In this document: positions 7,516 to 64,000 of the stretch, in pieces
Numbering within the stretch: the stretch's first letter is position 1
Layout of the letters: every line of letters starts with the position of its first letter
DNA from: a virus
Direction: 5' to 3' (one strand)
Length of the DNA stretch: 64,000 bases
Virus record (IMG/VR): IMGVR_UViG_3300043773_002546
Span: 96,001 to 160,000 of that record
Notes under the pieces: model-generated
Database searches by the model: none
What the model was told of the DNA's origin: nothing
The model's input: only the letters and a program-made list of their open reading frames with translations
Made by a program: the position numbers and the translations under genes

Positions 7516-9354
7516 ATGCCATTTAAGTCTGAAAAGCAGCGCAGGTTTCTCTGGGCCGAGCACCCCGAAATCGCCAAGCGCTGGGCCCGCAAGTACCCCG
7601 AGAGCAACAAAGGTCTGCCTATGTACGCCGAGAGTCCTGATAGCAAAGAAAAAGCGGCAGCCTTGGCGGTACTTGGCGGCGCCCTGGCAAAACACGCTGT
7701 TACGTTAACAACGAACCCAGCATCATATGAATCTGTGATAAACGACGACGGAACTATCAAGAAATCTAATGATGGCCTGGTTCGCGTCGAGCTCCCGAAG
7801 ACCGAGGGACCCACTTACGCCGGGCAAGAACAGGAAGCAGGCAAGGAAACCAGCTGCAAAAAGGATCTGGCGCCCAATAGCGAGAAAGTCCTGGATCTTA
7901 ACAATCCCGTGGCGGCCAAGCTCGCCACCGTGCTCTCGCACGCCCTGCGCGAAAAGCTCGAGCGGGAAAACGCGCTGGTCGAGGGACGCGATCCGCTTCA
8001 TGTCCCGCGTAACATGGGCATTAAGAGGTATGCCGTTGCCCCGCAGTTACACCAACTTCCCATGGGAATGCAGCCCCAAGCGCCCGCTCCGGCGCAAAAC
8101 CAGCCCAGCAATGGTCCGGTCGGCGGCGGTAATAATCCCCAGGCAAATCCGATTCAGGCGTTCGGCCCCTTAAGCGCGTCCGGCCAACTTAATGGCAACG
8201 CAGCGTTCGGCGTCAAGAACTCGCCGGACAGCTCCAAGACGTCTGCGTTTAATCCGCTGCCTGCGCTGCAAAAAGGCGTGGCGCGCTACGGCGAATTACT
8301 GACGGGTTCAAAGATTCCTCAGCTGGCGGCTAAATCTCGCCTGTCAGCTGATCATCTGGGCTCATTGGCTGGGCAATCGCCGTGGAACATGATCACCAGC
8401 CGCGCGCGACAGGCGCTGGCCGATGTGGGCGTTAACGCCGCGCAGCAAACCGTGCACGGCGCTGTCGATCTGGCAAAAGAAAAGGCGCTGTCCCGAGCCA
8501 CGCAACTGGGTACTGGCGCAGCTGGACTGGCTGGCGCTGGCTTGCTGGCGCATAGAGCCATGAACGCCAAACAAGCGGCCGAGAGCGGCGCCTGGACTCG
8601 CGCCGAAGGCAAGAACCCCGACGGCGGCCTGAACGCCAAGGGTCGGGCGAGTCTCAAAGCCCAGGGGCACGACATCAAAGCGCCAGTCACAGAGAGTAAT
8701 CCCAGTGGCGAGCGGGCGCAGCGGCAGAACTCGTTCTGCTCGCGCATGTGCGGCATGAAGAAGCACGAGACGGGCGCCAAGACTAAATCAGACCCAGACT
8801 CGCGCATTAACAAGTCGCTGCGCAAGTGGAACTGCAAATGCTCGAGCGCCTACGAGTTTGGCGCGCTGGCGTCGCGAGTTGCGCTCAATGATATCAATGA
8901 GAAATCGGCGGCCCGGGGCGACATGTTTCAGAAGATGATTAACTCTGGCGCCCTGAACTTCGTTTCGGGGCTCAGCGGGCGCACTCCAGGGCGCGCGACA
9001 GCAGGCATGGGCACAGCTGGCATGTCGCACGCCGGAAACCAAGCCAAGATCGTCGCTGATTTCATGCGGCGTGCTCGCGGCATGGTCCGCCCAGCGCAGC
9101 CTGCTGCTGCTGCGGCGCTGCCCGTGGCGGCCGCCAGTCAAGCCGCCAGCCGCGTGAGCCCGGATCTTTTGGCGGGTCTCAAGCAATTTGGCGCGAACAT
9201 CCGCAAGTCCAACCGCGGCAAGTATCTGGAAGGCGTCATGGACCTCCCAATCATGAGCCCCAGAGTGCGCGAGCTATTTCACGGGGCGCCGCCGTCTGCG
9301 CCGTTTGGTGCGCTGCCTTCTTTGGCGGCCACGCTACGGGGTCTGCAGCCGTGA
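7516..9354 (+). CDS. modular putative internal virion (poly)protein
   Basis: N-terminal MPFKSEKQRRFLWAEHPEIAKRW module; WTRAEGKNPDGGLNAKGRAS...SFCSRM...RINKSLRKWNC module (DUF6321-like, from memory); several K-x-A boundaries. Confidence 0.8.
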   Translation: MPFKSEKQRRFLWAEHPEIAKRWARKYPESNKGLPMYAESPDSKEKAAALAVLGGALAKHAVTLTTNPASYESVINDDGTIKKSNDGLVRVELPKTEGPTYAGQEQEAGKETSCKKDLAPNSEKVLDLNNPVAAKLATVLSHALREKLERENALVEGRDPLHVPRNMGIKRYAVAPQLHQLPMGMQPQAPAPAQNQPSNGPVGGGNNPQANPIQAFGPLSASGQLNGNAAFGVKNSPDSSKTSAFNPLPALQKGVARYGELLTGSKIPQLAAKSRLSADHLGSLAGQSPWNMITSRARQALADVGVNAAQQTVHGAVDLAKEKALSRATQLGTGAAGLAGAGLLAHRAMNAKQAAESGAWTRAEGKNPDGGLNAKGRASLKAQGHDIKAPVTESNPSGERAQRQNSFCSRMCGMKKHETGAKTKSDPDSRINKSLRKWNCKCSSAYEFGALASRVALNDINEKSAARGDMFQKMINSGALNFVSGLSGRTPGRATAGMGTAGMSHAGNQAKIVADFMRRARGMVRPAQPAAAAALPVAAASQAASRVSPDLLAGLKQFGANIRKSNRGKYLEGVMDLPIMSPRVRELFHGAPPSAPFGALPSLAATLRGLQP

Positions 9355-9482
9355 GCCGCGTGCAGCTCTTAACCGTCCTAATCTTGTTTGTGGTTTTGAC
9401 ACTGGTGGGCTGTAACGTGGCGCGCGGCGCATTAGGTGGTTTGTTAACATTTTGCCACAATAAGTCCGGTTCTGCTTTATAG
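9351..9482 (+). CDS. 43-aa lipoprotein-like peptide, entericidin-like (not in ORF track)
   Basis: GTGA overlap; hydrophobic core then LVG-C NVARG lipobox. Confidence 0.45.
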   Translation: MSRVQLLTVLILFVVLTLVGCNVARGALGGLLTFCHNKSGSAL

Positions 9483-9549
9483 CGAGGCGCCGATATGCGT
9501 TGACCGGGGGACACACGCTTTTGATGCGCATGTGCGCAGGGAGGCAGTC

Positions 9550-10374
9550 ATGAACAAGCTTATTTCTTGGTTAGTGACTTTTTTTCTCTTTCTTTTTGCC
9601 AGTCTGGCCGCCGCAGGCACACGCGACCCCAACACGCCCGACGCCCAGTATCTCGAGTTTGGTAAGAAGTTTCCGTTTGTCGTGCGCATCTGCACGCACA
9701 GTGAGCACACCGACGCGCAGGGCAATAAATACACCGAGCACGCCTGCGCCAGCGCGGTTGTGATCCGGCCGCACTGGGTACTGACCGCGGCGCATGTCTT
9801 CTCAGACGCTGAACGAGCCACAGTCAGGACCGAAGACGGCACGAAGTTTCCCCTGGTCAAACTGATTCCGCACAAAGACTACAAGCCGGAAAGCGTCGGC
9901 TGGCACGATATCGCGCTGGGCCGGACTGCGGCGCCCATTGAGCTGGAGTTCTATCCCAAGCTCTACACGAAGACCGACGAGCTGAATCAGGCCTGCACGT
10001 TTGCGGGCTGGGGCCTGGCAGGGACGTTTCATACCGGCGGCACGCACAGCGATAACAAGCGCCGGGCGGGACACAACAAGATCGATAGTCTGTCAGACGC
10101 GGTGCTATTATGCACGCCTAGCCGGGGCGCGGAGCGCTTTCCGCTGGAGTTTATGATTACGCCGGGAGACTCTGGCGGCGGCATGTTTCTGGGCAACGAG
10201 CTAGCGGGCATTAACTCGTTTCTTTTGGCCAGCGACGGCAAGCCAAACGGGACCTACACGGACGAAACGGCGTTTACGCGTGTGAGTCTATACGCGGATT
10301 GGGTAGAATCTCAGATCGAGAAGTACGAACTCGCGCTTCAAGCCCGCGCCACCGAGGGCGCACAGCTCGAGTAG
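9550..10374 (+). CDS. secreted trypsin-like serine protease (S1)
   Basis: Signal peptide; catalytic motifs VLTAAH, DIAL, GDSGGG. Confidence 0.92.
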   Translation: MNKLISWLVTFFLFLFASLAAAGTRDPNTPDAQYLEFGKKFPFVVRICTHSEHTDAQGNKYTEHACASAVVIRPHWVLTAAHVFSDAERATVRTEDGTKFPLVKLIPHKDYKPESVGWHDIALGRTAAPIELEFYPKLYTKTDELNQACTFAGWGLAGTFHTGGTHSDNKRRAGHNKIDSLSDAVLLCTPSRGAERFPLEFMITPGDSGGGMFLGNELAGINSFLLASDGKPNGTYTDETAFTRVSLYADWVESQIEKYELALQARATEGAQLE

Positions 10375-21929: not shown

Positions 21930-22586
21930 ATGCGCAATCCCTACGAATTTGGCTATGCCGTTGGCCAGTACGAGAAGTCTGCCAGCCTGGGCGGTTTCGC
22001 GCAGGGTGCCTGGGACGTCGGCAAGTACATGATTCCCGGCGTGGGCACAGCGTACACCGCTAAAGACCTCTACGACTCTGTTCGGTCTGGCAATGTGCTT
22101 GGCACGCTCGGCAACACAGCGATGCTCGGCGTCTCGCTCATTCCTGGCGCCGGTGGTTTGCTCGGCGGCGCGGCGAAGGGCATGGGCAAAGGCCTGATGC
22201 GAGCTGGCGCGAGCATGGGCGGTAACCTCGCTGGGCGCGGCTTAATGTCGGCTGGTCGGGCAATGCGTGTGGCGCCTGTGGCAATGCGCGCCGCTGGCCG
22301 TGCCGCGCAGGGCATTGAGAGCGCTATGGCCAAGGGCGTCCAGAAAGTCGTGCCGGTTAACGCGGCCACAAAAAGCTGGACGCGCATGGCCGTGAACAAA
22401 GCTGTGCAGAATCCAATGCACACGGCGGCGTACACATTGCCAATGGCGGCCGGTGGCGGCCCAGCAAGTGCCGCGGCAGGCGCGGCTAACGCCGTTTCTG
22501 CTCCGCGTCGAGCACCGGCTCCGGCACCCGCACCTGCACCGGCGCCAATGCCGCGGGCGCAACCGATGGCCTACGCGGGCATGTAA
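21930..22586 (+). CDS. Gly/Ala/Met-rich putative internal virion protein
   Basis: N-terminus NPYEFG..EKSA; hydrophobic Gly-rich helix pair. Confidence 0.8.
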   Translation: MRNPYEFGYAVGQYEKSASLGGFAQGAWDVGKYMIPGVGTAYTAKDLYDSVRSGNVLGTLGNTAMLGVSLIPGAGGLLGGAAKGMGKGLMRAGASMGGNLAGRGLMSAGRAMRVAPVAMRAAGRAAQGIESAMAKGVQKVVPVNAATKSWTRMAVNKAVQNPMHTAAYTLPMAAGGGPASAAAGAANAVSAPRRAPAPAPAPAPAPMPRAQPMAYAGM

Positions 22587-22613
22587 CGCACAAAGATATC
22601 AATGGAGTTAAGC

Positions 22614-24083
22614 ATGCAACCCAAAGAATTTGGCCAGAAACTGCGCGCCGAGAAAGAAGCCAATTTGGCCGCGATGGCAAACACGGTGGGCCGCGGGCTG
22701 CGTGGCGCAGGCGCCATGACCGCAAAAGCTTATGGGGCGGCAAAGCCGATGCTTAACATGGCGGCCGGAAGCATGGCAAACAGTGCTGCTGGCGCGGTAG
22801 GCGGCGCCGCAGCGACCGCCGGACTGGGATACATGATGAACGGCGGGCGACCGCAAGCGGCTCCGTCAATTAACATTCACATGGGGGGCATGCCGAATGC
22901 GCCCCGCCCCTCCGCCGCCGCAGAAGTTCCGGCTGCGTTCACGGCGCTCAAGCAAGCGTCGTTTGCTGGCGCTCCGATGGGGCCCGGTCCCGGCGCTATG
23001 ACCGACGGACACATGAGCGGCACGAACCCCTTTGAGATGTTCACTGGTCCGACGCATCAGTTCAATCCTGCTGGCTCGATGTCGAACCCGGGAAACACGA
23101 TCGGCAATCTGTTGCCGTCGAGCGCGGCAAACCCCATTCATGACGTCAGTGGCGCGGGCCAGGGGCTTTCCCGGCTGCTCAAGCCCTCGAACATTTCGCC
23201 GTCGCCGTCGAGCGCGGCAGGGCAAGTTGGGCAGACGCTCGGCGGCGAGGTCAAGAACGTCGTCGGCGATATGCTGCGCGACGGTCTAGCTGGTCGCGGT
23301 GGCGCCACGAGCGCGCTGAAACACATGGGATCGATTAGGAACATCACGCAAACGTTGCAGCCATTTCAAGGAGTCGCACAAATGGGAATGAACGCACTGA
23401 GCAATATGCCGCTGAAGACAGCCAGCACGCGGCCGGTTGCCACCGCACTGGTCGCTATGGCCGTGAAGCGCGCGGCCGAGATGGAGAAAGACGCCGCCGG
23501 GCTCGGCGGGCTGCTTTCAGGTATCGGCAGTCTGGCCCGCACGGCGCCTGCGGCACTGGCTTCGGGCGCGAAGATGGTCGGTAACGCTGGAAAGTTTGTG
23601 AATACTGGCTCGAAAAACTTTTTGCGCGCGACCGGCAACGCACTCCAGGGCGGCGGCCAAGTTGGCCAGGCCGTAGGTGGCCTGGCTGGCCGCGTGGGTC
23701 GCTTCGGCCAGCAGATGGGCACGGGCATTATTGGCGCCGCGGAAAACATTCCGACGCGCATGCTCGGCACGAACATGGGCCGCCCGATTCGCGACGTGAC
23801 GCAGGCGGCAGGCCACGCCATGCGCGCGACTGGCTCCGCCATCGGCGGCACCGGCGGAGGCGTCGGTCTGGTCGGCAAGGGCATGAACGCGGCGGGCCAG
23901 GGCCTGAAGCGCGTCTCGCAGATGGGTTACGGCATTCCCACCGCCGCGGCGATTCCCGTCGCAGCGGGCGCGGCCATGGCAGCCAAGCCGTTCGTGCCCA
24001 ACGTCGGCCTGCAGAATCCCGTGGAAGCGTCGGCCAATGTAAACTTTCGCAATCCAATCACGTTGAATTGGGATAAGAAATAA
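22614..24083 (+). CDS. Gly/Ala/Met-rich putative internal virion (poly)protein
   Basis: PKEFG..EKEA; KQAS, KTAS, KDAA boundaries. Confidence 0.8.
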   Translation: MQPKEFGQKLRAEKEANLAAMANTVGRGLRGAGAMTAKAYGAAKPMLNMAAGSMANSAAGAVGGAAATAGLGYMMNGGRPQAAPSINIHMGGMPNAPRPSAAAEVPAAFTALKQASFAGAPMGPGPGAMTDGHMSGTNPFEMFTGPTHQFNPAGSMSNPGNTIGNLLPSSAANPIHDVSGAGQGLSRLLKPSNISPSPSSAAGQVGQTLGGEVKNVVGDMLRDGLAGRGGATSALKHMGSIRNITQTLQPFQGVAQMGMNALSNMPLKTASTRPVATALVAMAVKRAAEMEKDAAGLGGLLSGIGSLARTAPAALASGAKMVGNAGKFVNTGSKNFLRATGNALQGGGQVGQAVGGLAGRVGRFGQQMGTGIIGAAENIPTRMLGTNMGRPIRDVTQAAGHAMRATGSAIGGTGGGVGLVGKGMNAAGQGLKRVSQMGYGIPTAAAIPVAAGAAMAAKPFVPNVGLQNPVEASANVNFRNPITLNWDKK

Positions 24084-26197
24084 TGAGTCCGTTTCCGCCC
24101 GGCGGTTTGTTTGGCAAACCGTTGGTAAACGTACCCGTAGACTTGCTTTATACCCGGCGCAAGCTACTTGAAAAGATTATGCAAAACGTTGCAAACCGTA
24201 AAATCCAGAACGCTATTCAAGCTACAGGTGACAGAATGGCCGCAACTCCCGAACAGTTTGGCGCGAATCTTGCCAAGGGCATTTCGCAGATGGGCAAGAA
24301 GGCTGGCGTTGACTGGCGCGGCGCAATTCGCGGCGCAATGGAAGGGCACTACGGCAAAATGCTGGACGCGAGCGTGCCGAAGGCGCAAGGCATGTTTGAT
24401 CGGTATAAACAGCTGTTGACGTTTGACCGGTTTCGCCGCATGCAGCAGCACACATCTGACGCGATGAACACGCTCGGGAAGGTCAGAATGCCGTCGGAAG
24501 AGATTGCGCGTGTTCGGAATCAGCTTGACGACGTGGTGCAGCCCGAGTTTTTTAAATCGCTTGGCACTGCAGCTGGCACTGGTGTCGGCGCGTCGCTGGG
24601 CATTAGCGCTGGGGTTAATGCTTTGTCAGGCGGCGACAAGAAGGCCAACTCTAATCCCGCTGACGCTCACGGCTCGAGCTTTGTGCCCCTGATGGGCGGC
24701 GCGATCTCCGGTGCTGTAAAGCCTCATCCCAGCCGCGGCACGCTCACGAACGTGTTGGGCGAAGGCTTGGCTGGACTCAAAGGCGGCACGATTGGCTCGC
24801 TGCTTGGCGGCGGCGCTGGCGCTTTGACAGACCTGGCGACGAAGTTCAAGGGCCGCGGCGTGCCGACGCTGTTGGGTACGCTGTTGGGCGGCTCGCTGGG
24901 TACGCATGTCGGCTCGCAGCTGCACCGTGAGAGCATTCCGCTGAACGCCCGCGCGCTGGCTGAGCTGACTAACAAGAAGAGCGCGGCAGAAAAGACTGCT
25001 ATTATTGACGGCGCCCTAATTGGCGGCGCGTTGGGCGGAGCTTCGGCGCCTGAAGGAAATGTTTTACGTGGCGTTGGTCGCGGCATGGTCCGCGGTATTG
25101 GCACGGAACTTGGCGCTGTCGGCGGGGGTCTAGCTGGCGGCGCTGCTGGTGGCGCAGCTGGCGCTGCTGGTGGCGCTGGTCTCGGTGCGTTGACGGCGCT
25201 GTTGTCAAAAAATTACCGGAGCGAACTGGGCCGACTGGCTCTGGGCGGCGCGTTTATGGGCGGCAACGTTGGCGCCGGTCTGGGCGGCCTGGCGGGGCTG
25301 TATCACGGCGGCCGCGCTGGCTACAACGCAGCGGGCAAGTTCATGGGTCCGGCGAGCTACGCGAAGCAGTCTGCAGATAAGCGCGCCTCCCTGCCCGAGG
25401 GCGTATTTGCCGGTATGGGCGGCGCGATGAGCGGCGGCACAGCGGGTCTGGGCGTGGGCGCGCTGTACGGCCTGCTTTCAGGCGCACTACAAGCCCGCAA
25501 GGGCAAGAAATTGCGCGGCGCGGCCATGGGGGCTTTGCGCGGCGCTGGTGGCGGGGGTTTGATCGGCGCCGGTATCGGCGGCGGCCTGGGACTGGGTACG
25601 GGGCTCATGATGCCCAACGTGCTCACCGCAAACCCGATTACGCAGGCGGCCAATGCCGTGAGCATTGCCAGCAATCCTATTAGTCACGCCGCAAAAATGA
25701 CGCTTGGCGCCGCTGCTGGTGGTATCGGCGGCGGCTATCTGGGTAACAAAGCACGCAAGAGTCTCATCGGCGACAAGCCCGAAAGCGAAGACGAAGACGA
25801 GGGGCTTGAGACGGAAGACAAGACGGAGATGGATCCGGCGCTGAAAGCGGCCGGATTAGTTCCGTCTTTTCAGCAGGCCGCGCGAGAAGGGCTAGCGGGC
25901 ATGCGCGGCCGGTTCAAGATTCTTGAGAACATGCGCGGCGTGCGTGACCGGCTGCTTTCCGGCGACTTGTATCCAATGCCGCCGTTGGACAAACACCTTA
26001 ACATTGTCAACCGCGGCTCTAACCACGCGGCCGATATTGGCGCCAAATTGGAGCGCATGATGAAGCAAATGCGCGTTCCGACGGACAAAATTAAAGACAC
26101 GGTCGGTAACGCGGCGTTAGCGCGTTCGGGCATCCCGCCGATGAAGATGCCGCCTGAACAGTTGCGCGATCTTCGGATAGAAGCTCTTGGCCGTTAA
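24083..26197 (+). CDS. multi glycine-zipper putative internal virion (poly)protein (start may be 24179)
   Basis: Several GxxxGxxxG hydrophobic tracts separated by KKAN, KSAAEKTA, KQSADKRAS, KAAG. Confidence 0.8.
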   Translation: MSPFPPGGLFGKPLVNVPVDLLYTRRKLLEKIMQNVANRKIQNAIQATGDRMAATPEQFGANLAKGISQMGKKAGVDWRGAIRGAMEGHYGKMLDASVPKAQGMFDRYKQLLTFDRFRRMQQHTSDAMNTLGKVRMPSEEIARVRNQLDDVVQPEFFKSLGTAAGTGVGASLGISAGVNALSGGDKKANSNPADAHGSSFVPLMGGAISGAVKPHPSRGTLTNVLGEGLAGLKGGTIGSLLGGGAGALTDLATKFKGRGVPTLLGTLLGGSLGTHVGSQLHRESIPLNARALAELTNKKSAAEKTAIIDGALIGGALGGASAPEGNVLRGVGRGMVRGIGTELGAVGGGLAGGAAGGAAGAAGGAGLGALTALLSKNYRSELGRLALGGAFMGGNVGAGLGGLAGLYHGGRAGYNAAGKFMGPASYAKQSADKRASLPEGVFAGMGGAMSGGTAGLGVGALYGLLSGALQARKGKKLRGAAMGALRGAGGGGLIGAGIGGGLGLGTGLMMPNVLTANPITQAANAVSIASNPISHAAKMTLGAAAGGIGGGYLGNKARKSLIGDKPESEDEDEGLETEDKTEMDPALKAAGLVPSFQQAAREGLAGMRGRFKILENMRGVRDRLLSGDLYPMPPLDKHLNIVNRGSNHAADIGAKLERMMKQMRVPTDKIKDTVGNAALARSGIPPMKMPPEQLRDLRIEALGR

Positions 26198-26213
26198 CGC
26201 CCATTAATATCAA

Positions 26214-40322: not shown

Positions 40323-40350
40323 CAATATTACTCGCAAGGATGCGAACTAT

Positions 40351-44493: not shown

Positions 44494-44847
44494 ATGGCCG
44501 ACACCGAGAAAGACGCATTTAAATTAGGTTTCCTGGCGCGCTGCGCCGAGGAGGGGCTTACGGGTGACGCGCTGGACGCGCGCATCAAGAGCGCCGAAGT
44601 TCTCGTAAAAACTGGTTGGGATCTGATCCCGTCGGAGGGCCGTTACGCTGCGGGCCTGGCTGCCGGTCTGCCGATCGCTGCTGGTGTTCTCGGCGGCGGG
44701 GCTCTGGGTTACGGTTTGGCCAAGATGCAGGAGCCACCGCTGGACGAGGACGAGATCAAAGCTAACGAGATCGCCACGACCTATCGTGTGCTAGCCCAGC
44801 GGGCCAAGGCACGAAAGAAGTTGCGGCAGTACCGTCCCGGCTCGTAA
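44494..44847 (+). CDS. putative virion protein with AFKLGF..KSA..KTG module and Gly-zipper
   Basis: Motifs read in translation. Confidence 0.75.
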   Translation: MADTEKDAFKLGFLARCAEEGLTGDALDARIKSAEVLVKTGWDLIPSEGRYAAGLAAGLPIAAGVLGGGALGYGLAKMQEPPLDEDEIKANEIATTYRVLAQRAKARKKLRQYRPGS

Positions 44848-44871: not shown

Positions 44872-45228
44872 GTGAGTCTGCGCAAATTTCACAGCGAAAT
44901 GGGCGGCGCCCAGCACGGCGGTGCCCGGCTGAGCTGGCCCGGCACGCCCGAGGGTTTTCCGGTCATTAACCGATCGGAGCACGCGGACCTCAAGCAGGAA
45001 GAGACCGAAAACCTCGACCTGCGGATGGATTACAAGTCCAAAATGTTCGAGCTGTGGGACGCGGCGCAGAAGGCAGAATTCGACGACATAAATGATAAGA
45101 TAGTCAACGGTTGGTACCTGTTGCAGAAGCGCAGCGACAACTGGGACGCAGAAAACAAACATTATCGCGTATGGCTGGAGTGGTGCCAGATTTACGGCAT
45201 GATTCCGCCTTCGAGGGCGCAACGATGA
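44872..45228 (+). CDS. hypothetical protein
   Basis: SD AAGGAGG, GTG 44872. Confidence 0.8.
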   Translation: MSLRKFHSEMGGAQHGGARLSWPGTPEGFPVINRSEHADLKQEETENLDLRMDYKSKMFELWDAAQKAEFDDINDKIVNGWYLLQKRSDNWDAENKHYRVWLEWCQIYGMIPPSRAQR

Positions 45229-50541: not shown

Positions 50542-51273
50542 ATGTTCACGGTTAATCCCGAACTGATTTCGCTCGCCCGCATGCGGTTCGAAAAGTCGGC
50601 CGTTGTGCCCCCGGGCGGCGGCGACCCGGCCATGATGGGCGGCGGCGCACCTCCGATGGACCCGGCGGCTATGGGCATGCAACAGCCTGCCGCCCCGGTT
50701 GACCCGGCTCAGGCGGCTATGGGCGCCGCTCCTCCTGCTGACCCCTCTCAGGATCCAACCGGCGCGATGGCCGCCGCAGCCCCGCCAGCACCGGCCCCGA
50801 TGCCTCCGGCGACGCCCACCGCCGCCGCTCCTGGCCAGCAGAAGCTCAAACCCGAGCAGATGATGCAGATGCTCGACTACCGGCTTTACAACATGCAGCA
50901 GCAACTCACGGCGATCATGAACGCCATGGGCGTGCAGGTCCCGCCGGAATCGCTCGTGCTACCCCCGGGCACGACCGGCGCGCCCCCGGCTGAGACGGCG
51001 CTGCCCGGCGGCCCGATGGCGCCGCCCCCGCCGCAGCAGGACCCGAACGCCCCGAGCGGCCCGCAACCTCCGGGCGGCCCGCTCCCTCCCGGCGGCCCGA
51101 TGGATCCCAGCCAGATGCCCATGGACCCTAACGCGCCGAAGCAGGCCAACTGGTGGGATGTGGGGCGCCCCGTGGACAAGGCCGTGCACAGCAACCCCGA
51201 CGCCCCGACGGACCTGCAGACCAAAGCGGCTGCAATCGCCGCGCTGTGTCGGAGCATGACGCGTGCGCGTTAA
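50542..51273 (+). CDS. Pro/Met/Gly-rich low-complexity protein between the RNAP genes
   Basis: Hairpin SD; EKSA and KQAN sites; short central helix. Confidence 0.8.
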   Translation: MFTVNPELISLARMRFEKSAVVPPGGGDPAMMGGGAPPMDPAAMGMQQPAAPVDPAQAAMGAAPPADPSQDPTGAMAAAAPPAPAPMPPATPTAAAPGQQKLKPEQMMQMLDYRLYNMQQQLTAIMNAMGVQVPPESLVLPPGTTGAPPAETALPGGPMAPPPPQQDPNAPSGPQPPGGPLPPGGPMDPSQMPMDPNAPKQANWWDVGRPVDKAVHSNPDAPTDLQTKAAAIAALCRSMTRAR

Positions 51274-53408: not shown

Positions 53409-53462
53409 GACGCTAAATTAGTGTCCAGATCTGGTTAATTTGCTCGCCGCACGGAGGTGGCT

Positions 53463-55844
53463 GTGTACAACCGCAAGAATTCTCAGCCTGAGTGGAAGCA
53501 CTGGCTCAAGGTTGCTCGTTCCCACGACCGCAGCCGTACCAAGCAAGCCGATATTGGCGGCAGCGGTGACAGCGCCTCGTTTGAGCAGGCGTTTTCAAAC
53601 CTGGCGCACGCTTACCTCCGCGACAGCGCCCCCAAGCTGCTGGACCATGAAATCGGTTTCCAGCTTTTGGACCGCAATAACGAGAACACTAAGGCAGTGG
53701 GCGTTTTTGCGTTTAAGGTCGGTTCCCAGTGGCTGTATGCCCCGGTGTTCTTCCTTAACGGTGAGCTCAAGGGCCACGAACTCCTGTACATCAAGAACCA
53801 GGACATGTTCGTGCCGTTGAAGGAAAACTGGGTTAACTACCTGATTAACCGCAAACCCAACATCCTGGGCAGCGGCGTTGATCGAAATCTGGGCGCGCGC
53901 GGTCAGCGACAGCCTGACTTTACGCAGCTTTCGCGCAGCCCGGCCAAGTTTGGTTCGGCGCAGCCGACTCTCAAGGAAATGATGACGGCCGCGATGGGCG
54001 CGTTTGCCAAGACGGCCACAATGAACACCGCCGCCGCGTTTGCTGACATGGGCAAGTCGCTTGACCTGGGTAAGTTCCTTAAGGAAGCCCGGCTTGAGAC
54101 AATTAACATGCTGGTGAACACGTTCAAGCACGCTCCGGCCCTGGCCAAGGCGTTTGACGAGTTCCACGGACTGGACACGGTTAAGGAAGCTATCGCGCTG
54201 GCTAAGGCCCGCGCGGCGCAGCCGAAGATCGCTAGCGTGCTGGAAAGCGCGCCAAACAAGTCCGAGGCGACCAAGAGCCTGAAGGTGATCACGCTGGACG
54301 TGACCCTGCAGACCAAGCTGCCGCCCGAGACCACCGAAGAAGATCAGGAAAAGCTGCTGCGCGACGGCGTGCTGATCCTCGACCAGCGCGACCGCGACAA
54401 CGTGTCTATTCCCTACAACATCCAGGTCGAGAAGAAGCTTTTCAACCCGACCTGCTCCGGCCTGTACGACATTATTGTCAAGCCCAACAGCGTGGAGCGC
54501 GTCTACATCGCCGTGTTTCCGGTGGGCCCGGCCAAGCGCAGCGATTTCGTCACGGTGGTGCGCACCGAAGGCAAGCCGACGTGGGTCAACACCCGCGCCG
54601 ACCGCGTCTTCTGCCTGGCGCACGTCGACGGAAAGGATTACGACGCGTGGTTTAACGGCCTGCCCGACGCCGACAGCGCCAGCAAGTCTGGCCGCTACAT
54701 GGCGGTCGGCAAGAACGGCGACGCCACGGTTCCCTTCCGCGTCATCCGCGAATTGGGCAGTACGGAGTTCAGCGGCACGAGCTATGAAGTCCACATGGAG
54801 GACCATTCGAAGTTTCCTCCCAAGGGCCACATCTCGCCCTGCTGCTACAGCGACCCGCTGAATTACGACAAATACCGCGACGGCGAGCGAATTCATCTCA
54901 AGGGTAAGAAGGGCAGCCAGCTCCGTGCGAGCATGGGCGACATCTTCGTTCCCGAGAGTTTCAAGCTGCTTAAATGCGCCCCGGGCGAAGACGACGTACC
55001 GGCCAGCGAGCTGGGCAACGGCCCGGCCTGCGGCTGTGGCGAGAGCGAAGACCCGCCGCTGCTCCCCGGCACTCTGGCCGACGCGCAGCTTGAGATCATG
55101 GGCAAGACGGCAGCGTTGGAGGTATACCACAACGGCACCGAGGTGGTAATCAACAAGGCAGCGGCTATGACGCCAATCAAGGCGCTGGTCACGCTTGTCG
55201 AGCATCACGGCCTGCGTGAAGACGCCGCCCGCGAGATCCTCAAAACAGCGGCTGCCAAGCGGAAGTACAGCGGTCGGATTAAGTACGCCAATCCGTACGG
55301 CTCGCCGATGATGATTAATGACGCGCCCGGCGCCCCGACTGATCCGGGCCCGGTAATGGGCGGCGAGACGATTATGGGCTCCAGCGTCCCGACGCAGCTG
55401 GGCATCGACATGGCTATGCCGGTTTCCGGCATGAGCGCGTCTCAAACGGACCGGCAGATCTACAACCCCAACACGCAGCTGGACAACAAGGCTATCCAGC
55501 AGGTGATGGAGGCCTCGCAAACGGGCCAGAAGGAAGTCTTCGACACGGCGATGATTGGCAGCATGCTGCGCGCTGTTCGCGACGACTCGATGGTCGACCG
55601 TTATATGGGCGAGCTCACCAAGGGCCTCGACAAGCTCGGCCGAATTTTGTTTATGTTCTACTGGCACGGCGATCGCTTCGCCGACCGTTACGGCAAAGCC
55701 GACATGCCGGAGCTAGAGGATTCGCTGCGCAACGCCTTCGAGATGTTGGGCGACGTCATCCTCTTCCTTAAGCAGAAGACCATCGAGCCGTATCCGGAAG
55801 AAGCCGGTGCCGACATTGATCTCAGCAACGTCGCAAACGCATAG
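53463..55844 (+). CDS. large putative head/virion protein
   Basis: GTG 53463 after hairpin SD (track start 53457); KQAD, KTAT, KTAA, KYAN sites. Confidence 0.8.
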   Translation: MYNRKNSQPEWKHWLKVARSHDRSRTKQADIGGSGDSASFEQAFSNLAHAYLRDSAPKLLDHEIGFQLLDRNNENTKAVGVFAFKVGSQWLYAPVFFLNGELKGHELLYIKNQDMFVPLKENWVNYLINRKPNILGSGVDRNLGARGQRQPDFTQLSRSPAKFGSAQPTLKEMMTAAMGAFAKTATMNTAAAFADMGKSLDLGKFLKEARLETINMLVNTFKHAPALAKAFDEFHGLDTVKEAIALAKARAAQPKIASVLESAPNKSEATKSLKVITLDVTLQTKLPPETTEEDQEKLLRDGVLILDQRDRDNVSIPYNIQVEKKLFNPTCSGLYDIIVKPNSVERVYIAVFPVGPAKRSDFVTVVRTEGKPTWVNTRADRVFCLAHVDGKDYDAWFNGLPDADSASKSGRYMAVGKNGDATVPFRVIRELGSTEFSGTSYEVHMEDHSKFPPKGHISPCCYSDPLNYDKYRDGERIHLKGKKGSQLRASMGDIFVPESFKLLKCAPGEDDVPASELGNGPACGCGESEDPPLLPGTLADAQLEIMGKTAALEVYHNGTEVVINKAAAMTPIKALVTLVEHHGLREDAAREILKTAAAKRKYSGRIKYANPYGSPMMINDAPGAPTDPGPVMGGETIMGSSVPTQLGIDMAMPVSGMSASQTDRQIYNPNTQLDNKAIQQVMEASQTGQKEVFDTAMIGSMLRAVRDDSMVDRYMGELTKGLDKLGRILFMFYWHGDRFADRYGKADMPELEDSLRNAFEMLGDVILFLKQKTIEPYPEEAGADIDLSNVANA

Positions 55845-58817: not shown

Positions 58818-60185
58818 ATGCAGCCACTGAGCAAAGAAGCCGAACAAAAGCTGATCGGCGCCATCGAGCGCGCCGCGGGATACGTAAACGACGGCATGGC
58901 GCCCAACGACGCAATCGTTAAAAGCGCCAGCGAGTCGCATATCCCCGCCGGACACCTAAACCTTATGGTGCACGCCTACAACACAGGCCGGACTACGAAA
59001 CAGCGCGAGCAGGGCGAGGGGACGTTGGAAAAAGCCGCTGACTTTCAGCTGGCCGACGCTAACACAGTCCACGCCCGGTTGTTTCCCAAGGACGTGAAGA
59101 CCGCTGCCCAGATCGAGCGGGCTCATGTCGTTTCCACCGACTATGCCGTCTCTCCGACGGGCATGCTGCAGCGTCGCAAGGCCGCTATGGCCAAGGAAGC
59201 TGCTGCGGCTGTTGCATTGCCGGAGAAGACGTGGGCCCCTCCGCCGCGCGACGAGCAGGCTGCAGCCCGGAAGGCTGCCAGTGCCAAACGCGCGGCAGAG
59301 TTGGCCGCCGAAGAGGTCCGCCGCCAGTCGACCGTGGCGCACGCCAAGGCCGCCGCCGCGATGGAGGAGCTGCACGAGTACTTCCGCCACCCCGGCAACG
59401 TGAGCTTTCAGGACGCCGTGCGCGAGACCGAGCTGCGACTTGGCGCTGATGGCGTTAACGTGCTGAAGAAGCTCGCCGCGGTGTACCCCCTTCTGGAAAA
59501 GCAATCTGCGACGAAAGCGCTTTTCATGGGCGACTGCGCTCCGGTTACGCTGGTGACCAGAGTATTGGCCGCGATTGAAACTTACAACGACGCCCGGCAA
59601 AAAGTGGCTAGCGCGGCTGTTAAACAGTCCGCATTTGGAAAGAAAGAAGCGCCAGAAATTCTTACCGGCTCGATTCTTTACAACCCGGCCGACGAACCCC
59701 TCACCCTGAAAGGCGCCGCGGACGATAACAAGTCGGGCGGTGGGGCGGGTAGCGGTTTTTTCGGCGGACTGACAGCGACTCCCAAACTCATTGGCCAGAC
59801 GCTGTCAGGTGTGATGCCCTTCGCAAAACCGAAAGAACCGGGTGACTTTAAGGCCGACGCGTTCAAGAAGCTGACGGATCCGGCGCACGAAAACGAGTTG
59901 CGAAACATTCGTTCCCAGGGCGCGCTGCACGACCTGATTGTTAACGACCCGATTATCTCCGGTCACGATCCGCAGGAAGTTGCGATGGCTTTTAACGAGC
60001 TGGCCGACTTGTCGCCAAACTTTGTCGATTCGCCTGCCATGATGCAGGCCCTGCTGCGCAAGCGTCTCGAGGCTGGGCAGTTGGCGGACTTCGACATCAA
60101 GCAGCTCGCAGACATCGAGAAGGCCAGGGCAGACGCTGACAAAGCGCGCACTGAAACGCTTGTGGCGCAAAAAGAACTCATCTGA
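58818..60185 (+). CDS. Ala-rich helical putative head protein
   Basis: KEAA, KQSA x2, KGAA sites. Confidence 0.8.
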   Translation: MQPLSKEAEQKLIGAIERAAGYVNDGMAPNDAIVKSASESHIPAGHLNLMVHAYNTGRTTKQREQGEGTLEKAADFQLADANTVHARLFPKDVKTAAQIERAHVVSTDYAVSPTGMLQRRKAAMAKEAAAAVALPEKTWAPPPRDEQAAARKAASAKRAAELAAEEVRRQSTVAHAKAAAAMEELHEYFRHPGNVSFQDAVRETELRLGADGVNVLKKLAAVYPLLEKQSATKALFMGDCAPVTLVTRVLAAIETYNDARQKVASAAVKQSAFGKKEAPEILTGSILYNPADEPLTLKGAADDNKSGGGAGSGFFGGLTATPKLIGQTLSGVMPFAKPKEPGDFKADAFKKLTDPAHENELRNIRSQGALHDLIVNDPIISGHDPQEVAMAFNELADLSPNFVDSPAMMQALLRKRLEAGQLADFDIKQLADIEKARADADKARTETLVAQKELI

Positions 60186-60202: not shown

Positions 60203-61153
60203 ATGGACGCCGAACGTTACGCCGATATCTTTGCGCGCGCTGCCACAACCGGCAACCGCGCCGAGCTGGTCAAGGTCGCCAGCGCGTTCACCAAAACCGC
60301 CTTGGGGATGGAAGATCTCAAAGGCGCATTGGGTAACCCAGCAGTTCAGAACGCCCTGATTGGCGCAGGCGTCGGCGGCTTGTTCGGCGCCGCGACCGGC
60401 AAGAAGAAGCTGCGTAGTGCTTTGGGCTACGGTCTCTTGGGCGGCCTGGGCGGTTTGGGCGTCAGCGCCCTGACCGGCAAAGGGAAACCCGAAGTTCCAG
60501 CAGGGCTGTCGTCCGCGGAACGCGGCGCGATCGCTACCGGCACAGGCAACCCCGTCGCCGCTACCGCTACCGGCGCTGGCATCGGCGGCGCGGCTGGATA
60601 TGCCGCGGGTGGCGCCGTAGGCGATCAGATGGCCAAGCGTGAGAACCAGCTCAGCCGCTTTATGGACGCCGGAGGCAAAGACAAGCACCGCTTTGCCAAA
60701 CCGCTGCAGCGCCTCGAAAAGTTTGGCCCAGGCGGCGAGTCGGCGGTCGCCGATTTTAAGCTCGACTCGCGTACGGCACCGTTTCAAAACAATCGTTTCC
60801 GTCTAGCGGGCCTAGACACCGGCAACGTCGGAGATGAAGCAGGCCGCGCAATCGACACAGTCTCGGACGTAATGAAAAAAGACCGGCTGTCTTACCTCCC
60901 TTGGCGCCGCACCAAACAGCTCGACGCCCTGACCAAGGTCATTCAGGCTGAGGGAAACGCCGCCACGCGCATCAATCCAAAAGCGCTGGCCAGCGCCTTG
61001 GACGAGCTGCCCGCAAAGGCCACGAGTCGGATGCCGCGATACGGCCGCGGAGCCGGTGCGCTGCTGGGCATTCTGCTTGGCGGCATAGGCGGCGCCCGGG
61101 CTAATCGATCGGCTGTACTTAATGCGCAGCAGCAGGCTGCAGGAGCCCAATAA
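60203..61153 (+). CDS. multi glycine-zipper putative virion protein
   Basis: KVAS/KTA N-terminus; three GxxxG tracts. Confidence 0.8.
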   Translation: MDAERYADIFARAATTGNRAELVKVASAFTKTALGMEDLKGALGNPAVQNALIGAGVGGLFGAATGKKKLRSALGYGLLGGLGGLGVSALTGKGKPEVPAGLSSAERGAIATGTGNPVAATATGAGIGGAAGYAAGGAVGDQMAKRENQLSRFMDAGGKDKHRFAKPLQRLEKFGPGGESAVADFKLDSRTAPFQNNRFRLAGLDTGNVGDEAGRAIDTVSDVMKKDRLSYLPWRRTKQLDALTKVIQAEGNAATRINPKALASALDELPAKATSRMPRYGRGAGALLGILLGGIGGARANRSAVLNAQQQAAGAQ

Positions 61154-62625
61154 TGAGCATGATCAAAGTGATCTCTCCCGGTGCGCAGGACTTTAGCGAG
61201 CCGGTCGCGTCGCTCATCAAGATTTCCAGCCGGGGGCTTTTGGGCCAGGACAAGGCGGACCTTGTGAAGCGCGCTGGCGCCGAGTTCGCTGAGAAGCTCA
61301 TGCGGATCAAGTTTGCCAAAGACGAGATCCCTGTGCACATGATTGCCATCGGCGCCACAGAGGACTACGGCCCGAACCGCAACGCGGACGGTTTTACGCG
61401 CGATTGCTGCAAGAGCCACCACCACACGTTCGAGAAATACGCACGTTTCTACCGTGACCACGCCAACAAGAACCCGGCCAAGAGTTACGGTATCGTGAAG
61501 GCCAGCGCCTATCACGAGCCCATGAAGCGCATCGAGCTGATTGTGGCTCTGAACGGCTCGAAAGAGGCCGCCGATCGCAACGGCGGTTTAATTGCCGACA
61601 AGGAGATGGAGAAGCTGGCCCAGGGCGACGATATCGGCGTCTCGATGGCCTGCAAGATCCCCTTCGACGTCTGCTCCGGCTGCGGCAACAAAGCCCGCAC
61701 CCGCGCTGAGTACTGCGACTCGCCGGACAACGGTGGCATGTGCAAGGCAGGCGGGCTCAAGCGCAACCTTGGCCGCGTGCTAGCTGACGGGCATATCCTT
61801 CACGCCGACAACCCGAACCCGACCTTCTTCGATATCTCTCACGTGTTCCGCCCGGCGGACCGTATCGCCTACATCTTTGGCAAGGTGGCAGAATTGCAAA
61901 AGGCCGCCTCGGCGGGTTGCATTTCCGGGGCCGAACTCGCCGAGCAGATGGGCGTCACGGCGCCGCTAGGGTTTGATATCAATGGGGGATTAACAACTAA
62001 AATCGCTGCCCAGCTTGTGGCGCTGGAGAAATTAGCAGCCGCCGAGGCTACCTGCGCTGCTGCCAACCCAGTCGGTTGGACCCAGGCGAGCCTGGCGGCC
62101 AACCCGGCCGTGCAGCCGCCTGCGGATTTCACTCCGGTTGAAAACGTCAAGCTCGCTGAGGTCGTCCGCGGCCTTGTCGAGGCAGGCGTGGTTCTGCCGC
62201 TGCGGGATTTCCTGGCACTGACTGTAAAGAGCGCTTCCCAAGAACTGGTCGACTCGGTGCGCGCTGCGTTACCAGGAGTTTTTGGCAAGCTGGCCGCCGC
62301 GCCTGACCTTGTTACGGTTTTGGAAAACAATCCCTACGACGCTGCGGGCAGCGCGTCTGTTAAGATTAAGCTGTGGGCGGAGAAGCTGGCGGCAACGCAC
62401 AGCCTGCTCCCCCACGATGTTGAAAAACGAGCTTATTTAGCTGCGCTTCGCAACGCTGTTCCGGCAGCGCCAACTTGTGAAAAACGGGCAAGCACCGGCG
62501 CGGCCGAGGCTCTTGCGCGTCATTACGCTTTGTATAAGATCGCTTCCTTCTCGTCCCTGGGCGAGAAAAATCAAAATTGCTGGTTGACAGCAAACCAATG
62601 TGTTTTGCAGAATTATGTCACATGA
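61153..62625 (+). CDS. probable prohead maturation protease (HK97/assemblin-like fold) with Zn-finger insert and C-terminal extension
   Basis: NRNADGF, RDH, VSMAC..DVCSGCGN..YC, FFDISHVFRPAD; directly precedes a scaffold-like ORF. Confidence 0.7.
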   Translation: MSMIKVISPGAQDFSEPVASLIKISSRGLLGQDKADLVKRAGAEFAEKLMRIKFAKDEIPVHMIAIGATEDYGPNRNADGFTRDCCKSHHHTFEKYARFYRDHANKNPAKSYGIVKASAYHEPMKRIELIVALNGSKEAADRNGGLIADKEMEKLAQGDDIGVSMACKIPFDVCSGCGNKARTRAEYCDSPDNGGMCKAGGLKRNLGRVLADGHILHADNPNPTFFDISHVFRPADRIAYIFGKVAELQKAASAGCISGAELAEQMGVTAPLGFDINGGLTTKIAAQLVALEKLAAAEATCAAANPVGWTQASLAANPAVQPPADFTPVENVKLAEVVRGLVEAGVVLPLRDFLALTVKSASQELVDSVRAALPGVFGKLAAAPDLVTVLENNPYDAAGSASVKIKLWAEKLAATHSLLPHDVEKRAYLAALRNAVPAAPTCEKRASTGAAEALARHYALYKIASFSSLGEKNQNCWLTANQCVLQNYVT

Positions 62626-62664
62626 ACAGACCGCGCTGACGCGTGGGGTCTAAAGGAGTAAATC

Positions 62665-64000
62665 ATGGCACGGACGCAACGATCTCTGTTTGCACAGCTC
62701 AACGCGCTGGCTGAGGAAATTTCACAGGGGTCTGTGAAGGCCGCCGCGCACAAGAAAGCCGAAGGCCCCACCCCCTCTGATCCGGGCGGATACGATGGCG
62801 CTTCTTCGCACCCCACCGCTAACGTTGACAACAACGTGCAGAAGGCGGAGACCGGTGCCCGCGCCAGCGAGTACGAGACGGATATCAAGAAGCAGCAGGG
62901 CGCGCTGGCCGTCGACAACACCCCCGAGATGAGCCAGGAAGGCCGTCAGGACGAGGTGCAGTTGAACATTGGCACCAGCGCCAAGGCCACGGGCGAAGAT
63001 CCTTCGACCGAGCACGACTACAAGGGCGACAAGGACGACCCGGGCACTGCGCATCCCGCCAAGACCAACGACGGCGAGAAGTACAGCTCGGTGACGTTCA
63101 AGGAAGCCCGCGACAACGCCGCGTCGCTCGGTAACGAGATTCTTGCGAACCTTATCAACTTCGGTACCGGCAAGCTCGAGGCCGAAAAGGCCGCTGAGAT
63201 GCCCGCCGCTCTTGCTAAGGCGCTTCACGAAAAAAAAGAATCTCCCGCTGAAGAAAAAAGCGAGCACGACAGCGGCAAGCTGAAGGGCGACCAGCACAAG
63301 CTGGACACCGATAACGACGGCAAGATCGAGGGCTCTGACCTTGCGGCGCTCCGCGCCGGTAAGGAAGCCGCGTTCAAGGCCGGTTATGAGCTCGCTGCGG
63401 CGCTCGGCATGGACAAGGCAGCCGCTGAGGCTTCTGTCCGCGACGTCTGCGCTAACACGATTCGCGAAGCCGACGAAATGGCCGACCTGTTCCTGGGTTT
63501 CGTCACTGCAAAGCAGGCCGAAGACGACACGGCCGAAGCGGCCGCCGAGGGCGAAGATCACTCCGCCCCGGGTGACGCTGACAGCGGCGCGTCTGACGCC
63601 GGTGCTTCGGCTCCCGCTGGCCTTGAGGCCATGATGGCGGGTGGCGACGGCCCGGACGCTGGTCCCATGGGCGCCGAAGGCGCTCCGATGGGCGGCGCGG
63701 GCGGCGCTCCGTCAGAAGACGAGGCTGTTCAAGAACTGGCGATGGCGCTGGAAGAGCTCGGCATCCCGCCGGAAGCTCTTCTGGAAGCTGCGCAAGGCGG
63801 CGGTGCTGGCCCCGAGGCTGGTGCTGCCCCCGAGGCCGCCATGGCCGGTGCCGAACCCGCCCCGAAGATGGCCGCTGCGAATGACCTCTACGCCATTGGC
63901 GCCGAGGTGATCCGTTTCAAGCGCGCCGGAAAGTTTCAGGTGAAGGAGGCCCGCACCAAGCGGTCCCGCCAGCTTCGTGACATCATGAAGCAGCACGTCC
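62665..64000 (+). CDS. acidic scaffold-like head protein, 3' partial (missing from ORF track)
   Basis: SD AAGGAG, ATG 62665, open to window end; MARTQRSLFAQLNALAEE..; KLKGDQHKLDTDNDGKIEGSDL EF-hand-like module; many K-x-A. Confidence 0.75.
   Translation, partial: MARTQRSLFAQLNALAEEISQGSVKAAAHKKAEGPTPSDPGGYDGASSHPTANVDNNVQKAETGARASEYETDIKKQQGALAVDNTPEMSQEGRQDEVQLNIGTSAKATGEDPSTEHDYKGDKDDPGTAHPAKTNDGEKYSSVTFKEARDNAASLGNEILANLINFGTGKLEAEKAAEMPAALAKALHEKKESPAEEKSEHDSGKLKGDQHKLDTDNDGKIEGSDLAALRAGKEAAFKAGYELAAALGMDKAAAEASVRDVCANTIREADEMADLFLGFVTAKQAEDDTAEAAAEGEDHSAPGDADSGASDAGASAPAGLEAMMAGGDGPDAGPMGAEGAPMGGAGGAPSEDEAVQELAMALEELGIPPEALLEAAQGGGAGPEAGAAPEAAMAGAEPAPKMAAANDLYAIGAEVIRFKRAGKFQVKEARTKRSRQLRDIMKQHV

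Follow-up and report, generated by a model that had tools for sequence, protein, structure and literature searches.

Lys-x-Ala as a probable head-protease cutting code in an uncultured large phage

The window analysed here is a stretch of 64,000 nucleotides, bases 96,001-160,000 of the 197,309-bp genome of an uncultured phage (IMG/VR record IMGVR_UViG_3300043773_002546). The subject of this study is a three-residue motif, Lys-any residue-Ala (K-x-A; written K.A as a search pattern, in which a dot stands for any residue), together with the predicted head protease encoded at position 61153 and the proteins in which the motif recurs. The phage genome has a G+C content (GC) of about 60%, is transcribed almost entirely from the + strand and encodes a split multisubunit RNA polymerase at 46154 and 51504 (PHROGs). 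Its closest cultured relatives are Salmonella phage Arash and the Vibrio phages D69, D181, and D148; among the proteins detected in virion preparations of Arash, its homologue of the polymerase is the most abundant (PMC10585845). Around the protease gene, 39 related loci are available in IMG/VR, most of them 62-72% identical and three 30-43%, and the protease family forms 2,618 clusters at 50% identity in a search of 1.84 billion representatives. A first-pass annotation of the window had listed 16 open reading frames (ORFs, named here by their start positions) with K-x-A at module edges, some of them with an N-terminal leader, and had proposed that the product of ORF 61153 cuts at these sites. 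We re-translated the quoted coordinates to confirm the motif positions, and all the motifs and leaders were found at the ORFs to which they had been assigned; three of the starts (22614, 45225, and 53463) are internal starts of ORFs 22602, 45111, and 53457.

The raw K.A excess falls mainly in 58818-64100 (48 observed vs 23.4 expected) and is also seen in 53457. The features of this head region are as follows.

50542..51273, + strand: Pro/Ala/Met-rich protein, with a 20-residue leader (MFTVNPEL…FEKSA) at 50542-50601
53457..55844, + strand: head protein of 795 amino acids (aa), weakly similar to its homologue in Arash, the virion protein gp218
58818..60185, + strand: all-helical scaffold-like protein, 455 aa, with 13 K.A, 9 of them K.A[AS]
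60203..61153, + strand: glycine-zipper protein, 316 aa, with N-proximal K.A at K24, K31, and K40
61153..62625, + strand: predicted prohead protease (aa 1-234) fused to a helical scaffold-like C-domain (aa 255-490), 490 aa, with 16 K.A
61855..61914, + strand: interdomain linker of 61153, ADRIAYIFGKVAELQKAASA, with K250-A-A-S at 61900-61911 as a candidate self-release site
62665..64000, + strand: acidic scaffold-like protein, 451 aa, with its end at 64020 beyond the window and 10 K.A
63361-63423: piece of 62665 running KEA-AFKAGYELAAALGMD-KAA

The assignment of 61153 as the head protease is borne out by its fold. The AlphaFold model, based on a 77-sequence alignment, has a mean predicted local distance difference test score (pLDDT) of 89 and consists of an α/β domain (residues 1-234), a disordered segment (235-254), and the helical C-domain. 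With Foldseek, three chains of T4 gp21 were the sole confident matches (probability 1.0), and in an all-against-all structural search (VIA) T4 gp21 (5jbl_A) stood far above the next unrelated rows, with a Z score of 11.9 and a root-mean-square deviation of 3.4 over 151/165 residues. The same search also lists the proteases of varicella-zoster virus (VZV, Z 6.4), human cytomegalovirus (HCMV, 4.7), and KSHV (Kaposi's sarcoma-associated herpesvirus, 3.6). Residues N75-R-N77, H103, S164, and four Cys are invariant in the 77 representatives, and the motifs N75-R-N77, D-H103, and G-V-S164 occur, as compared by eye, in the same order as N-R-N, N-H85, and G-V-S140 in T4. Using hhalign, we obtained no significant alignment with T4 gp21, only the chance hexapeptide SSRGL (24-29 vs T4 139-144), and no sequence-level links were found in the PDB or Pfam, so that the kinship with gp21 is visible by fold and short motifs only. 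Judged by the model, 61153 really is a serine prohead protease of the gp21/assemblin fold, a relative of MEROPS S77, S80, and S21, with predicted activity. Its head-module arrangement is syntenic in the 39 relatives, and its homologues in Gordonia phages are annotated as capsid maturation proteases.

The linker at residues 235-254 is the sole segment of the model with a pLDDT below 50. Within it, K250, A251, and A252 do not vary among 15 relatives, and a K.A is present within a few residues of this position in 75/76 protease representatives. Two other features of the family should be mentioned. Directly after the putative catalytic Ser164, a zinc-ribbon-like insert with four Cys (C174, C177, C188, and C197; aa 174-197, 61672-61746) is invariant in the 77 representatives and absent from T4 gp21. 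Many homologues are 750-1300 aa long through one or two inteins (Hint + LAGLIDADG; P0007, P0010, and P0039), which are located near the NRN motif (~residue 72) and the catalytic Ser/Cys cluster (~165-185), positions typical of essential active sites.

In the 16 listed ORFs, K.A is observed 94 times against 62.9±7.2 expected, and K.A[AS], in which Ala or Ser follows directly, 46 times against 13.3±3.5 (z~9). Because the ORFs had been picked by eye for showing the motif, and Ala is abundant at 60% GC, such an excess might be a statistical or compositional artefact of Ala-/Lys-rich proteins. However, the excess was unchanged when the shuffles were confined to blocks of 10, 20, or 40 residues (z 9.0-9.6), and the controls of the same composition ([AS]A.K, [AS]K.A, KA[AS], K..A[AS], R.A[AS], E.A[AS], and A.K) stayed at expectation, R.A[AS] being observed 6 times against 10.4 expected. 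In other words, the K.A excess is order-specific and not a by-product of Ala- or Lys-rich stretches. In the window's remaining ORFs, K.A is as frequent as expected (53 vs 53.3). To remove the selection bias introduced by the choice by eye, the complete set of 240 ORFs in the 197-kb genome was ranked: 61153 came first (9 vs 1.2, P 4e-6) and 58818 second (9 vs 1.3, P 1e-5), followed by 22602, 64040 (located shortly beyond the window), 53457, 27076, and 62665. These results, together with the site-specific conservation described below and the K.A excess in a relative of 49% GC and in Arash, refute chance and composition as the source of the excess, and we regard such an artefact as extremely improbable.

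The motif is also unevenly placed. In the head and cargo regions, 21/36 ORFs have a K.A among their first 47 residues, where 9.6±2.6 would be expected; in the tail region it is 0/25, with 3.6 expected. The conserved structural ORFs 55852, 57225, 64509, 66964, 69394, and 70808 have no K.A at all. As for the major capsid protein, Arash gp226 has no BLAST match in the phage, and PHROGs, Pfam, and Atlas are silent for 64509, 66964, and 53457. The annotated capsid protein of Arash, gp226, itself contains LVKEA↓G at residues 25-29 (the arrow, here and below, marks a putative or known point of cleavage).

In 58818, 62665, 64040, and 61153, for which about 35 orthologues are available, the K and A of the K.A sites are typically 0.9-1.0 conserved, whereas the middle residue (0.06-0.5) and the flanks (0.3-0.7) are much freer. 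When pooled over the alignable ORFs, the K in K.A is 0.68 conserved vs 0.59 for other K (P 0.005), and the A is 0.72 vs 0.56 for other A (P 8e-6). In 58818, the corresponding values for K are 0.76 and 0.51, and K35, K72, K94, K228, and K298 are invariant; K94 and K298 are located in disordered segments, and K298-x-A directly precedes a hypervariable, indel-rich spacer. The contrast is strongest in 62665 (K 0.97 vs 0.71, A 0.92 vs 0.58, middle residue 0.57), in which four K.A[AS] sites are kept in 35-37/37 orthologues. As a separate observation, 62665 has at aa ~212-225 (63300-63340) the sequence DTDNDGKIEGSDL, with the look of an EF-hand calcium-binding loop (DxDxDG), just upstream of KEA-AFKAGY…KAA.

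Outside these scaffold-like proteins, conserved sites of the head region are also found close to N-termini. In 60203, which has weak glycine-zipper matches in Pfam, EKVA and TKQA are present in 6/6 alignable orthologues while the remainder diverges. In 53457, nearly all orthologues have a T-K-x-A at aa 28-31 (53538-53549), and 31/36 have K-I-A-S at aa 257, with a flank identity of 0.45. The leader and K-S-A of 50542 are found in 14/14 aligned orthologues, and an indel-rich low-complexity stretch follows a few residues on. The first-pass annotation had described the K-x-A proteins as polyproteins that release cargo domains. For the K.A-richest of them this description does not hold well: 58818, 62665, and 64040 are all-helical and flank the protease, and 58818, the C-half of 61153, 62665, and 64040 are more likely a degraded scaffold. 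It is favoured, on the other hand, by the shuffled proteins, whose junctions fall on K.A, as described below.

If K-x-A belongs to the protease, it should accompany the protease in distant relatives, and this appears to be the case. We scanned all 400 residue pairs at gap 1 in the ORFs near the protease, and K.A was the top pair in L037 (protease identity 43%, 49% GC; z 5.2), in L039 (41% identity; z 4.7), in L040 (30% identity, 64% GC; z 6.1), and in gp218-gp225 of Arash (38% identity; 44 vs 19.7, z 5.5), where the sites look like [LMIV]-x-K-x-A-[S/A/G/E]. Across the 77 protease representatives (~40% identity), K.A occurs 3.6-4.4 times as often as expected. In these sequence comparisons, K-x-A behaves as a short linear motif that accompanies the protease family across deep divergence. 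As a positive control, the same scan of T4 gp67, gp68, gp21, and gp22 placed I.E first (z 3.8) and L.E second (z 3.4). The cleavage motif of T4 gp21 (I/L-x-E, P3-x-P1) is experimentally established; since the scan recovers this true prohead-protease code, K would by analogy be P3 and A would be P1.

The same motif could instead be cut after its Lys (K↓x-A), either by 61153 with an HK97-like specificity for Lys at P1 or by a trypsin-like protein of the phage. Two other peptidases of the window were considered:

9532..10374, + strand: trypsin-like S1 protease with an N-terminal signal peptide (Pfam Trypsin, E 7e-20)
40279..41163, + strand: protein with PG_binding_1 and M10 metallopeptidase domains (Pfam, 2e-16 and 2e-8)

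The first of these is a clear trypsin-family enzyme. It adjoins the polyvalent protein gene 7516 and, among the relatives, only the closest ones (G001-G003) have it. Trypsins cleave behind Lys or Arg and their pockets usually accept Arg, but R.A[AS] is, as mentioned, not enriched; moreover, 9532 has a signal peptide and is missing from G004, G005, and Arash, whose genomes are complete and all keep the K.A excess, and it was rejected as the conserved partner of the motif. The freely varying middle residue of K-x-A would correspond to P2 in the P3-x-P1 motifs of T4 and SPN3US, the shape that the T4 control also gives, and the strong preference for a small residue directly after the Ala fits P1'. 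A cut after Lys is therefore unlikely in our judgement. The M10 peptidase is a weak rival as the cutter: it has a peptidoglycan-binding domain and is probably an enzyme of the cell wall, lysis, or entry.

Several proteins encoded at a distance from the protease begin with a common leader that ends in K-x-A:

21930..22586, + strand: Gly/Ala-rich protein, with the leader MRNPYEFGYAVGQYEKSA at 21930-21983
22614..24083, + strand: fusion protein, with the leader MQPKEFGQKLRAEKEA at 22614-22661 and an internal junction, KRAAEMEKDAA, at 23466-23498
32700..32987, + strand: 95-aa protein, with the leader MNAYEFGRRVGNTLCKQA at 32700-32753

All three start with M-x-(x)-[A/P]-[Y/K]-E-F-G…K-x-A, 22614 having Lys in place of Tyr. 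The consensus of the leader is M-[N/T/Q]-[P/A]-[Y/F]-E-F-G-[Y/Q/F]-x-[V/I]-G-x-x-E-K-x-A, with a length of 17-18 residues. About 22 N-terminal copies were found in 14 genomes, ~20 of them in the syntenic region of 13 relatives, and orthologues of 21930 in G001 and G002 bear the same leader. Of the 14 leaders with a 7-residue spacer, 13 have K15-x-A17 and one has Ser for Ala, and conservation collapses at position 18. Without the leaders, the remaining bodies form at least six families that share no BLAST similarity with one another, and the body of 32700 is unrelated to the other leader-bearing proteins. Against an expectation of 0.2, the pattern [YFML][EQ]FG-x0-14-K.A was counted 3 times in the genome, and three relatives contain 10 copies where 0.35 would be expected. 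In the 27076 family, a small Cys module follows a shorter junction form, S-A-[L/M/F]-E-F-G-x0-3-K-x-A, which also stands at the end of DUF6321 proteins. These observations support, at the level of sequence, the view that unrelated proteins carry the YEFG…K-x-A leader as a portable tag at their N-terminus, as the first-pass annotation had suspected; by analogy, it most likely acts like the capsid-targeting sequence of T4.

FKLGF and FKAGY had also been counted among the leaders that precede K-x-A, and here the earlier suggestion fails: in both 44494 and 62665 the K.A comes first, and we rejected these motifs as forms of the YEFG leader. In the former protein, (E/D)K(D/E)A-FKLGF is found in 7/8 relatives and the second K.A is not conserved.

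44494..44847, + strand: 117-aa protein starting MADTEKDA-FKLGF

A further group consists of modular proteins whose homologues differ widely in length and composition, namely 7516, 36987, and 22602 (the ORF that includes 22614), together with 24083 and 27076:

7516..9354, + strand: polyvalent-type protein, 612 aa (Pfam DUF6321, E 4.5e-18; several PHROGs)
24083..26197, + strand: glycine-zipper-rich protein, 704 aa, with a conserved N-terminal region of 74 residues that ends in PEQFG…GKKA (24083-24304)
27076..28725, + strand: modular protein, 549 aa, with a truncated leader, MNQFEKEA
36987..38105, + strand: 2H-SAK phosphoesterase + DUF5661 protein (Pfam domains at 97-182 and 227-269)

Homologues of 7516, 27076, and 36987 range from 346 to 1057 aa, with modules gained or lost. 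For 24083 and 27076, relatives were taken from the syntenic regions; searches with peptide patterns failed because the sequences diverge too fast. Over the five proteins, 9/21 homology breakpoints are located within 7 residues of a K.A, where 2.6 would be expected (P ~5e-4), which bears out the claim that K-x-A marks module edges. No peptidase domain was found in any of the five with Pfam or PHROGs.

The individual proteins illustrate the same point. 7516 is composed of a DUF3008-like N-terminus, K46-A-A (7651-7659), K352-Q-A (8569-8577), DUF6321 (8608-8829), SAYEFG…EKSA (8845-8910), and an ARGDM module; the internal copy of the YEFG leader follows DUF6321 directly, and the ends of high-scoring segment pairs (HSPs) at 46, 353/359, and 467 coincide with K.A. 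In 22614, residues 290-490 align to stand-alone ORFs of 193-210 aa (G001_23637, G002_24739, and G003_26402) that start with MTPFEFG…EKSA, and the E-K-S-A-A of their leader aligns with the internal E-K-D-A-A of 22614/22602. In 24083, only the 74-residue N-terminus is conserved, homology stopping at 75-76, directly after K72-K-A74. In 27076, a small Cys module lies between KGA and KPAAKKQAA (28051-28170) and KEA-ARGDM follows further on; in its orthologues, the protein starts with MNAYEFGQHIGGHEKEA and SALEFG(M)K[AV]A stands before the Cys module, and HSP ends fall at 353 and 367. The single K.A of 36987 (K203-A-A205, 37593-37601) separates its two Pfam domains, with both K and A 100% conserved, and in L041 and L043 an extra module of ~170 residues sits at this position, bracketed by KAA and KDA.

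Some side observations on these proteins may be added. K-[S/E]-A-A-R-G-D-M is common to 7516 (8899-8922) and 27076 (28324-28347), which suggests that one downstream module start has been reused in two proteins. G004_26442_29615, a 1057-aa homologue of 36987 from the upstream region of the distant relative G004 (put together from loci L058-L060), has a SET-like module (…GKGIFATKKF…YCNHSDEPNA…VNYHD) after the 2H phosphoesterase and KKA, and also a Cys-rich module, each module starting after a K.A. G...G is strongly over-represented in the listed ORFs (149 vs 95.6), and the long glycine-zipper stretches in 24083-28725 (ORFs 24083 and 27076) and 22602-24083 suggest membrane-active ejection proteins.

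It could be argued that K-x-A is not a protease site but a structural or binding motif of helical scaffold repeats, such as a helix cap or a shell contact, and that the junction sites arose by common descent and by recombination at conserved leader-coding DNA, which could serve as a recombination joint. Many sites are indeed in predicted helices of all-helical proteins, and the bulk of the numerical excess falls in four neighbouring scaffold-like genes. Nevertheless, K-x-A ends leaders and separates unrelated domains (2H-SAK from DUF5661, DUF6321, and the SET-like module of G004), and it occurs in disordered linkers (61153, 235-254; K94 and K298 of 58818). A packing motif would not usually leave its middle residue and flanks so free to vary; in T4, the identical signature has been proven to be a cleavage motif; and K-x-A accompanies one protease family at 49-64% GC and in the cultured phage Arash. 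A purely structural role is thus quite unlikely.

Two of the listed ORFs are doubtful:

38460..39482, + strand: 340-aa protein
45111..46151, + strand: membrane-like protein (MSTKQA at the internal start 45225)

The membership of 38460 is questionable because, of its sites, K31-A-A alone is conserved, and that partly (5/8 relatives), and K in K.A is 0.38 conserved vs 0.41 for other K. In 45111 no conserved K.A was found, its N-terminus being unalignable among the relatives (conservation 0.40 vs 0.29). Some other genes of the window may be mentioned. At 33003-34007 (+), a 334-aa protein matches Pfam Volactin PF25216 from end to end (E 6e-64); this actin-fold protein of the archaeal volactin type, with 76-91% identity among relatives, is the most conserved gene of the region. 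A ferritin-like protein is encoded among the late genes at 29801-30277 (+; Pfam Ferritin, E 1e-10), and the genes for a methyltransferase (31448) and a GT25 glycosyltransferase (35302) are interspersed among the leader-bearing ORFs.

Taking these results together, we favour the reading that K-x-A is the head-protease cutting code of the phage and assign it a probability of about 0.68; the observation of the recurrent motif is confirmed, and the interpretation first put upon it is partly supported. On this reading, 61153 would act inside the assembled prohead and recognise Lys (P3), any residue (P2), and Ala (P1), followed by a small P1', most often Ala or Ser, the cut probably being made after the Ala. 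The protease would free itself at the linker (K250-A-A↓S) and would chop the helical scaffold (58818, its own C-domain, 62665, and 64040) into peptides that leave the head. It may also trim the short N-terminal propeptides of 50542, 53457, and 60203, remove the 17-18-residue leader from 21930, 22614, and 32700 and the truncated leader from 27076, and separate the modules of the shuffled polyvalent proteins 7516, 22602, 24083, 27076, and 36987. The leader would bring unrelated proteins into the scaffold core and then be clipped off, as is the capsid-targeting sequence of T4.

Several points weigh against this reading. Cleavage is deduced from sequence, and no cleavage product has been observed in the phage or in any relative; the published virion proteome of Arash gives coverage percentages and 116 "structural" proteins only and is uninformative on cleavage (PMC10585845). 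Many K.A of 58818 and of the C-domain of 61153 are inside predicted helices, and conserved K.A inside the folded protease domain (KRAG and KYAR) may be structural. Some K.A sites are shared by descent, so that the orthologue counts are not independent. In the block 21930-32987 the K.A count is hardly above chance (29 vs 23.2), and the signal there is positional, at leader ends and module junctions. Capsid targeting by the leader is argued by analogy, and we infer the virion membership of the leader-bearing proteins. Lastly, within the same fold class, the distantly related HK97 gp4 cleaves behind Lys103, which makes K↓x-A conceivable.

The wider proposal is that a very large, mostly uncultured clade of ~180-210-kb myoviruses, which package a multisubunit RNA polymerase, combines a Lys-x-Ala↓small head protease, whose rule of Ala at P1 and Ser at P1' would be common to herpesviruses, with a portable 17-residue YEFG capsid address into a readable code for packaging and cutting, and we give this about even odds. 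If it is true, the proteins loaded into the head and the cut points of injected effector polyproteins could be listed from sequence alone, and, for a widespread clade that is hardly studied, the set of proteins that are packaged and probably also injected, including the 2H phosphoesterase and DUF6321 modules, would become predictable. Lys-x-Ala would then constitute a third specificity class of gp21/assemblin proteases beside aliphatic-x-Glu and small-x-Glu. With the leader as a packaging tag, foreign proteins could be loaded into capsids. The cultured relatives Arash and Vibrio phage D69 make the hypothesis directly testable.

Among the known systems, that of T4 gp21 is similar in the protease fold (Z 11.9) and, as compared by eye, in the order NRN…His…GVSer; in both systems, a three-residue motif of the P3-x-P1 type saturates the scaffold genes beside the protease (the core proteins gp22, gp67, and gp68 in T4), and a short common N-terminal leader ending in the motif is carried by unrelated proteins (IPI-III and Alt in T4). 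The differences are that the motif is Lys-x-Ala in the phage and aliphatic-x-Glu, (Leu/Ile)-x-Glu, in T4; that the leader has 17-18 residues and that of T4 has 10 (MKTYQEFIAE); that 61153 has, behind its putative catalytic Ser, the four-Cys insert, and also a helical C-domain of 235 residues; and that the likely candidates for the capsid protein of the phage are without any K.A.

The phage also resembles phiKZ (gp175) and SPN3US (gp245), large myoviruses that package a multisubunit RNA polymerase and many proteins, and whose head proteins have N-terminal propeptides with several copies of the motif and a preference for Ser at P1'; their proteases process inner-body and ejection proteins. The cut of SPN3US gp245 falls behind A-x-E, Ser being the P1' residue, and N-terminal propeptides are made (PMC10052503). 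In the phage, however, Ala would take the place of Glu at P1 and Lys that of a small residue at P3 (A/S/G-x-Glu in phiKZ and SPN3US), there is no sequence similarity beyond the fold, and the putative substrates include shuffled multi-domain proteins with internal sites.

The herpesvirus assemblins (pUL26/UL80a), with sites of the forms Y-L/V-x-Ala↓Ser/Thr (release) and V-x-Ala↓Ser (maturation), share the layout of 61153, an N-terminal protease, a linker with a self-release site (a candidate site in 61153), and a C-terminal scaffold, and they are relatives by fold (VZV Z 6.4, HCMV 4.7). Herpesvirus proteases cut YLQA↓T (release) and VQA↓S (maturation) and release themselves from the C-terminal scaffold (PMC4498786), and the putative cut in the phage likewise falls between Ala and Ser/Ala. 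On the other hand, P3 would be Lys in the phage and is Val/Leu in herpesviruses, the scaffold of the phage is spread over several extra genes, and these viruses infect eukaryotes and have no detectable sequence similarity to the phage. The Ala↓Ser-type cut and the protease-linker-scaffold layout would bear on the shared ancestry of capsid maturation in tailed phages and herpesviruses.

Finally, 7516, 36987, and the G004 homologue of the latter are multi-domain, rapidly shuffled proteins and fit the concept of polyvalent proteins, for which packaging and delivery have been predicted. For these, processing by embedded metallopeptidase (MPTase) domains has been proposed (Iyer et al. 2017, PMC5512222), whereas the modules of the phage proteins are separated by the putative head-protease motif and no MPTase domain was found in them. 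Our literature searches found no description of a Lys-x-Ala head-protease motif. Relative to the T4/phiKZ scheme, what is new is the Lys-x-Ala motif, the leader, and the internal sites in shuffled proteins.

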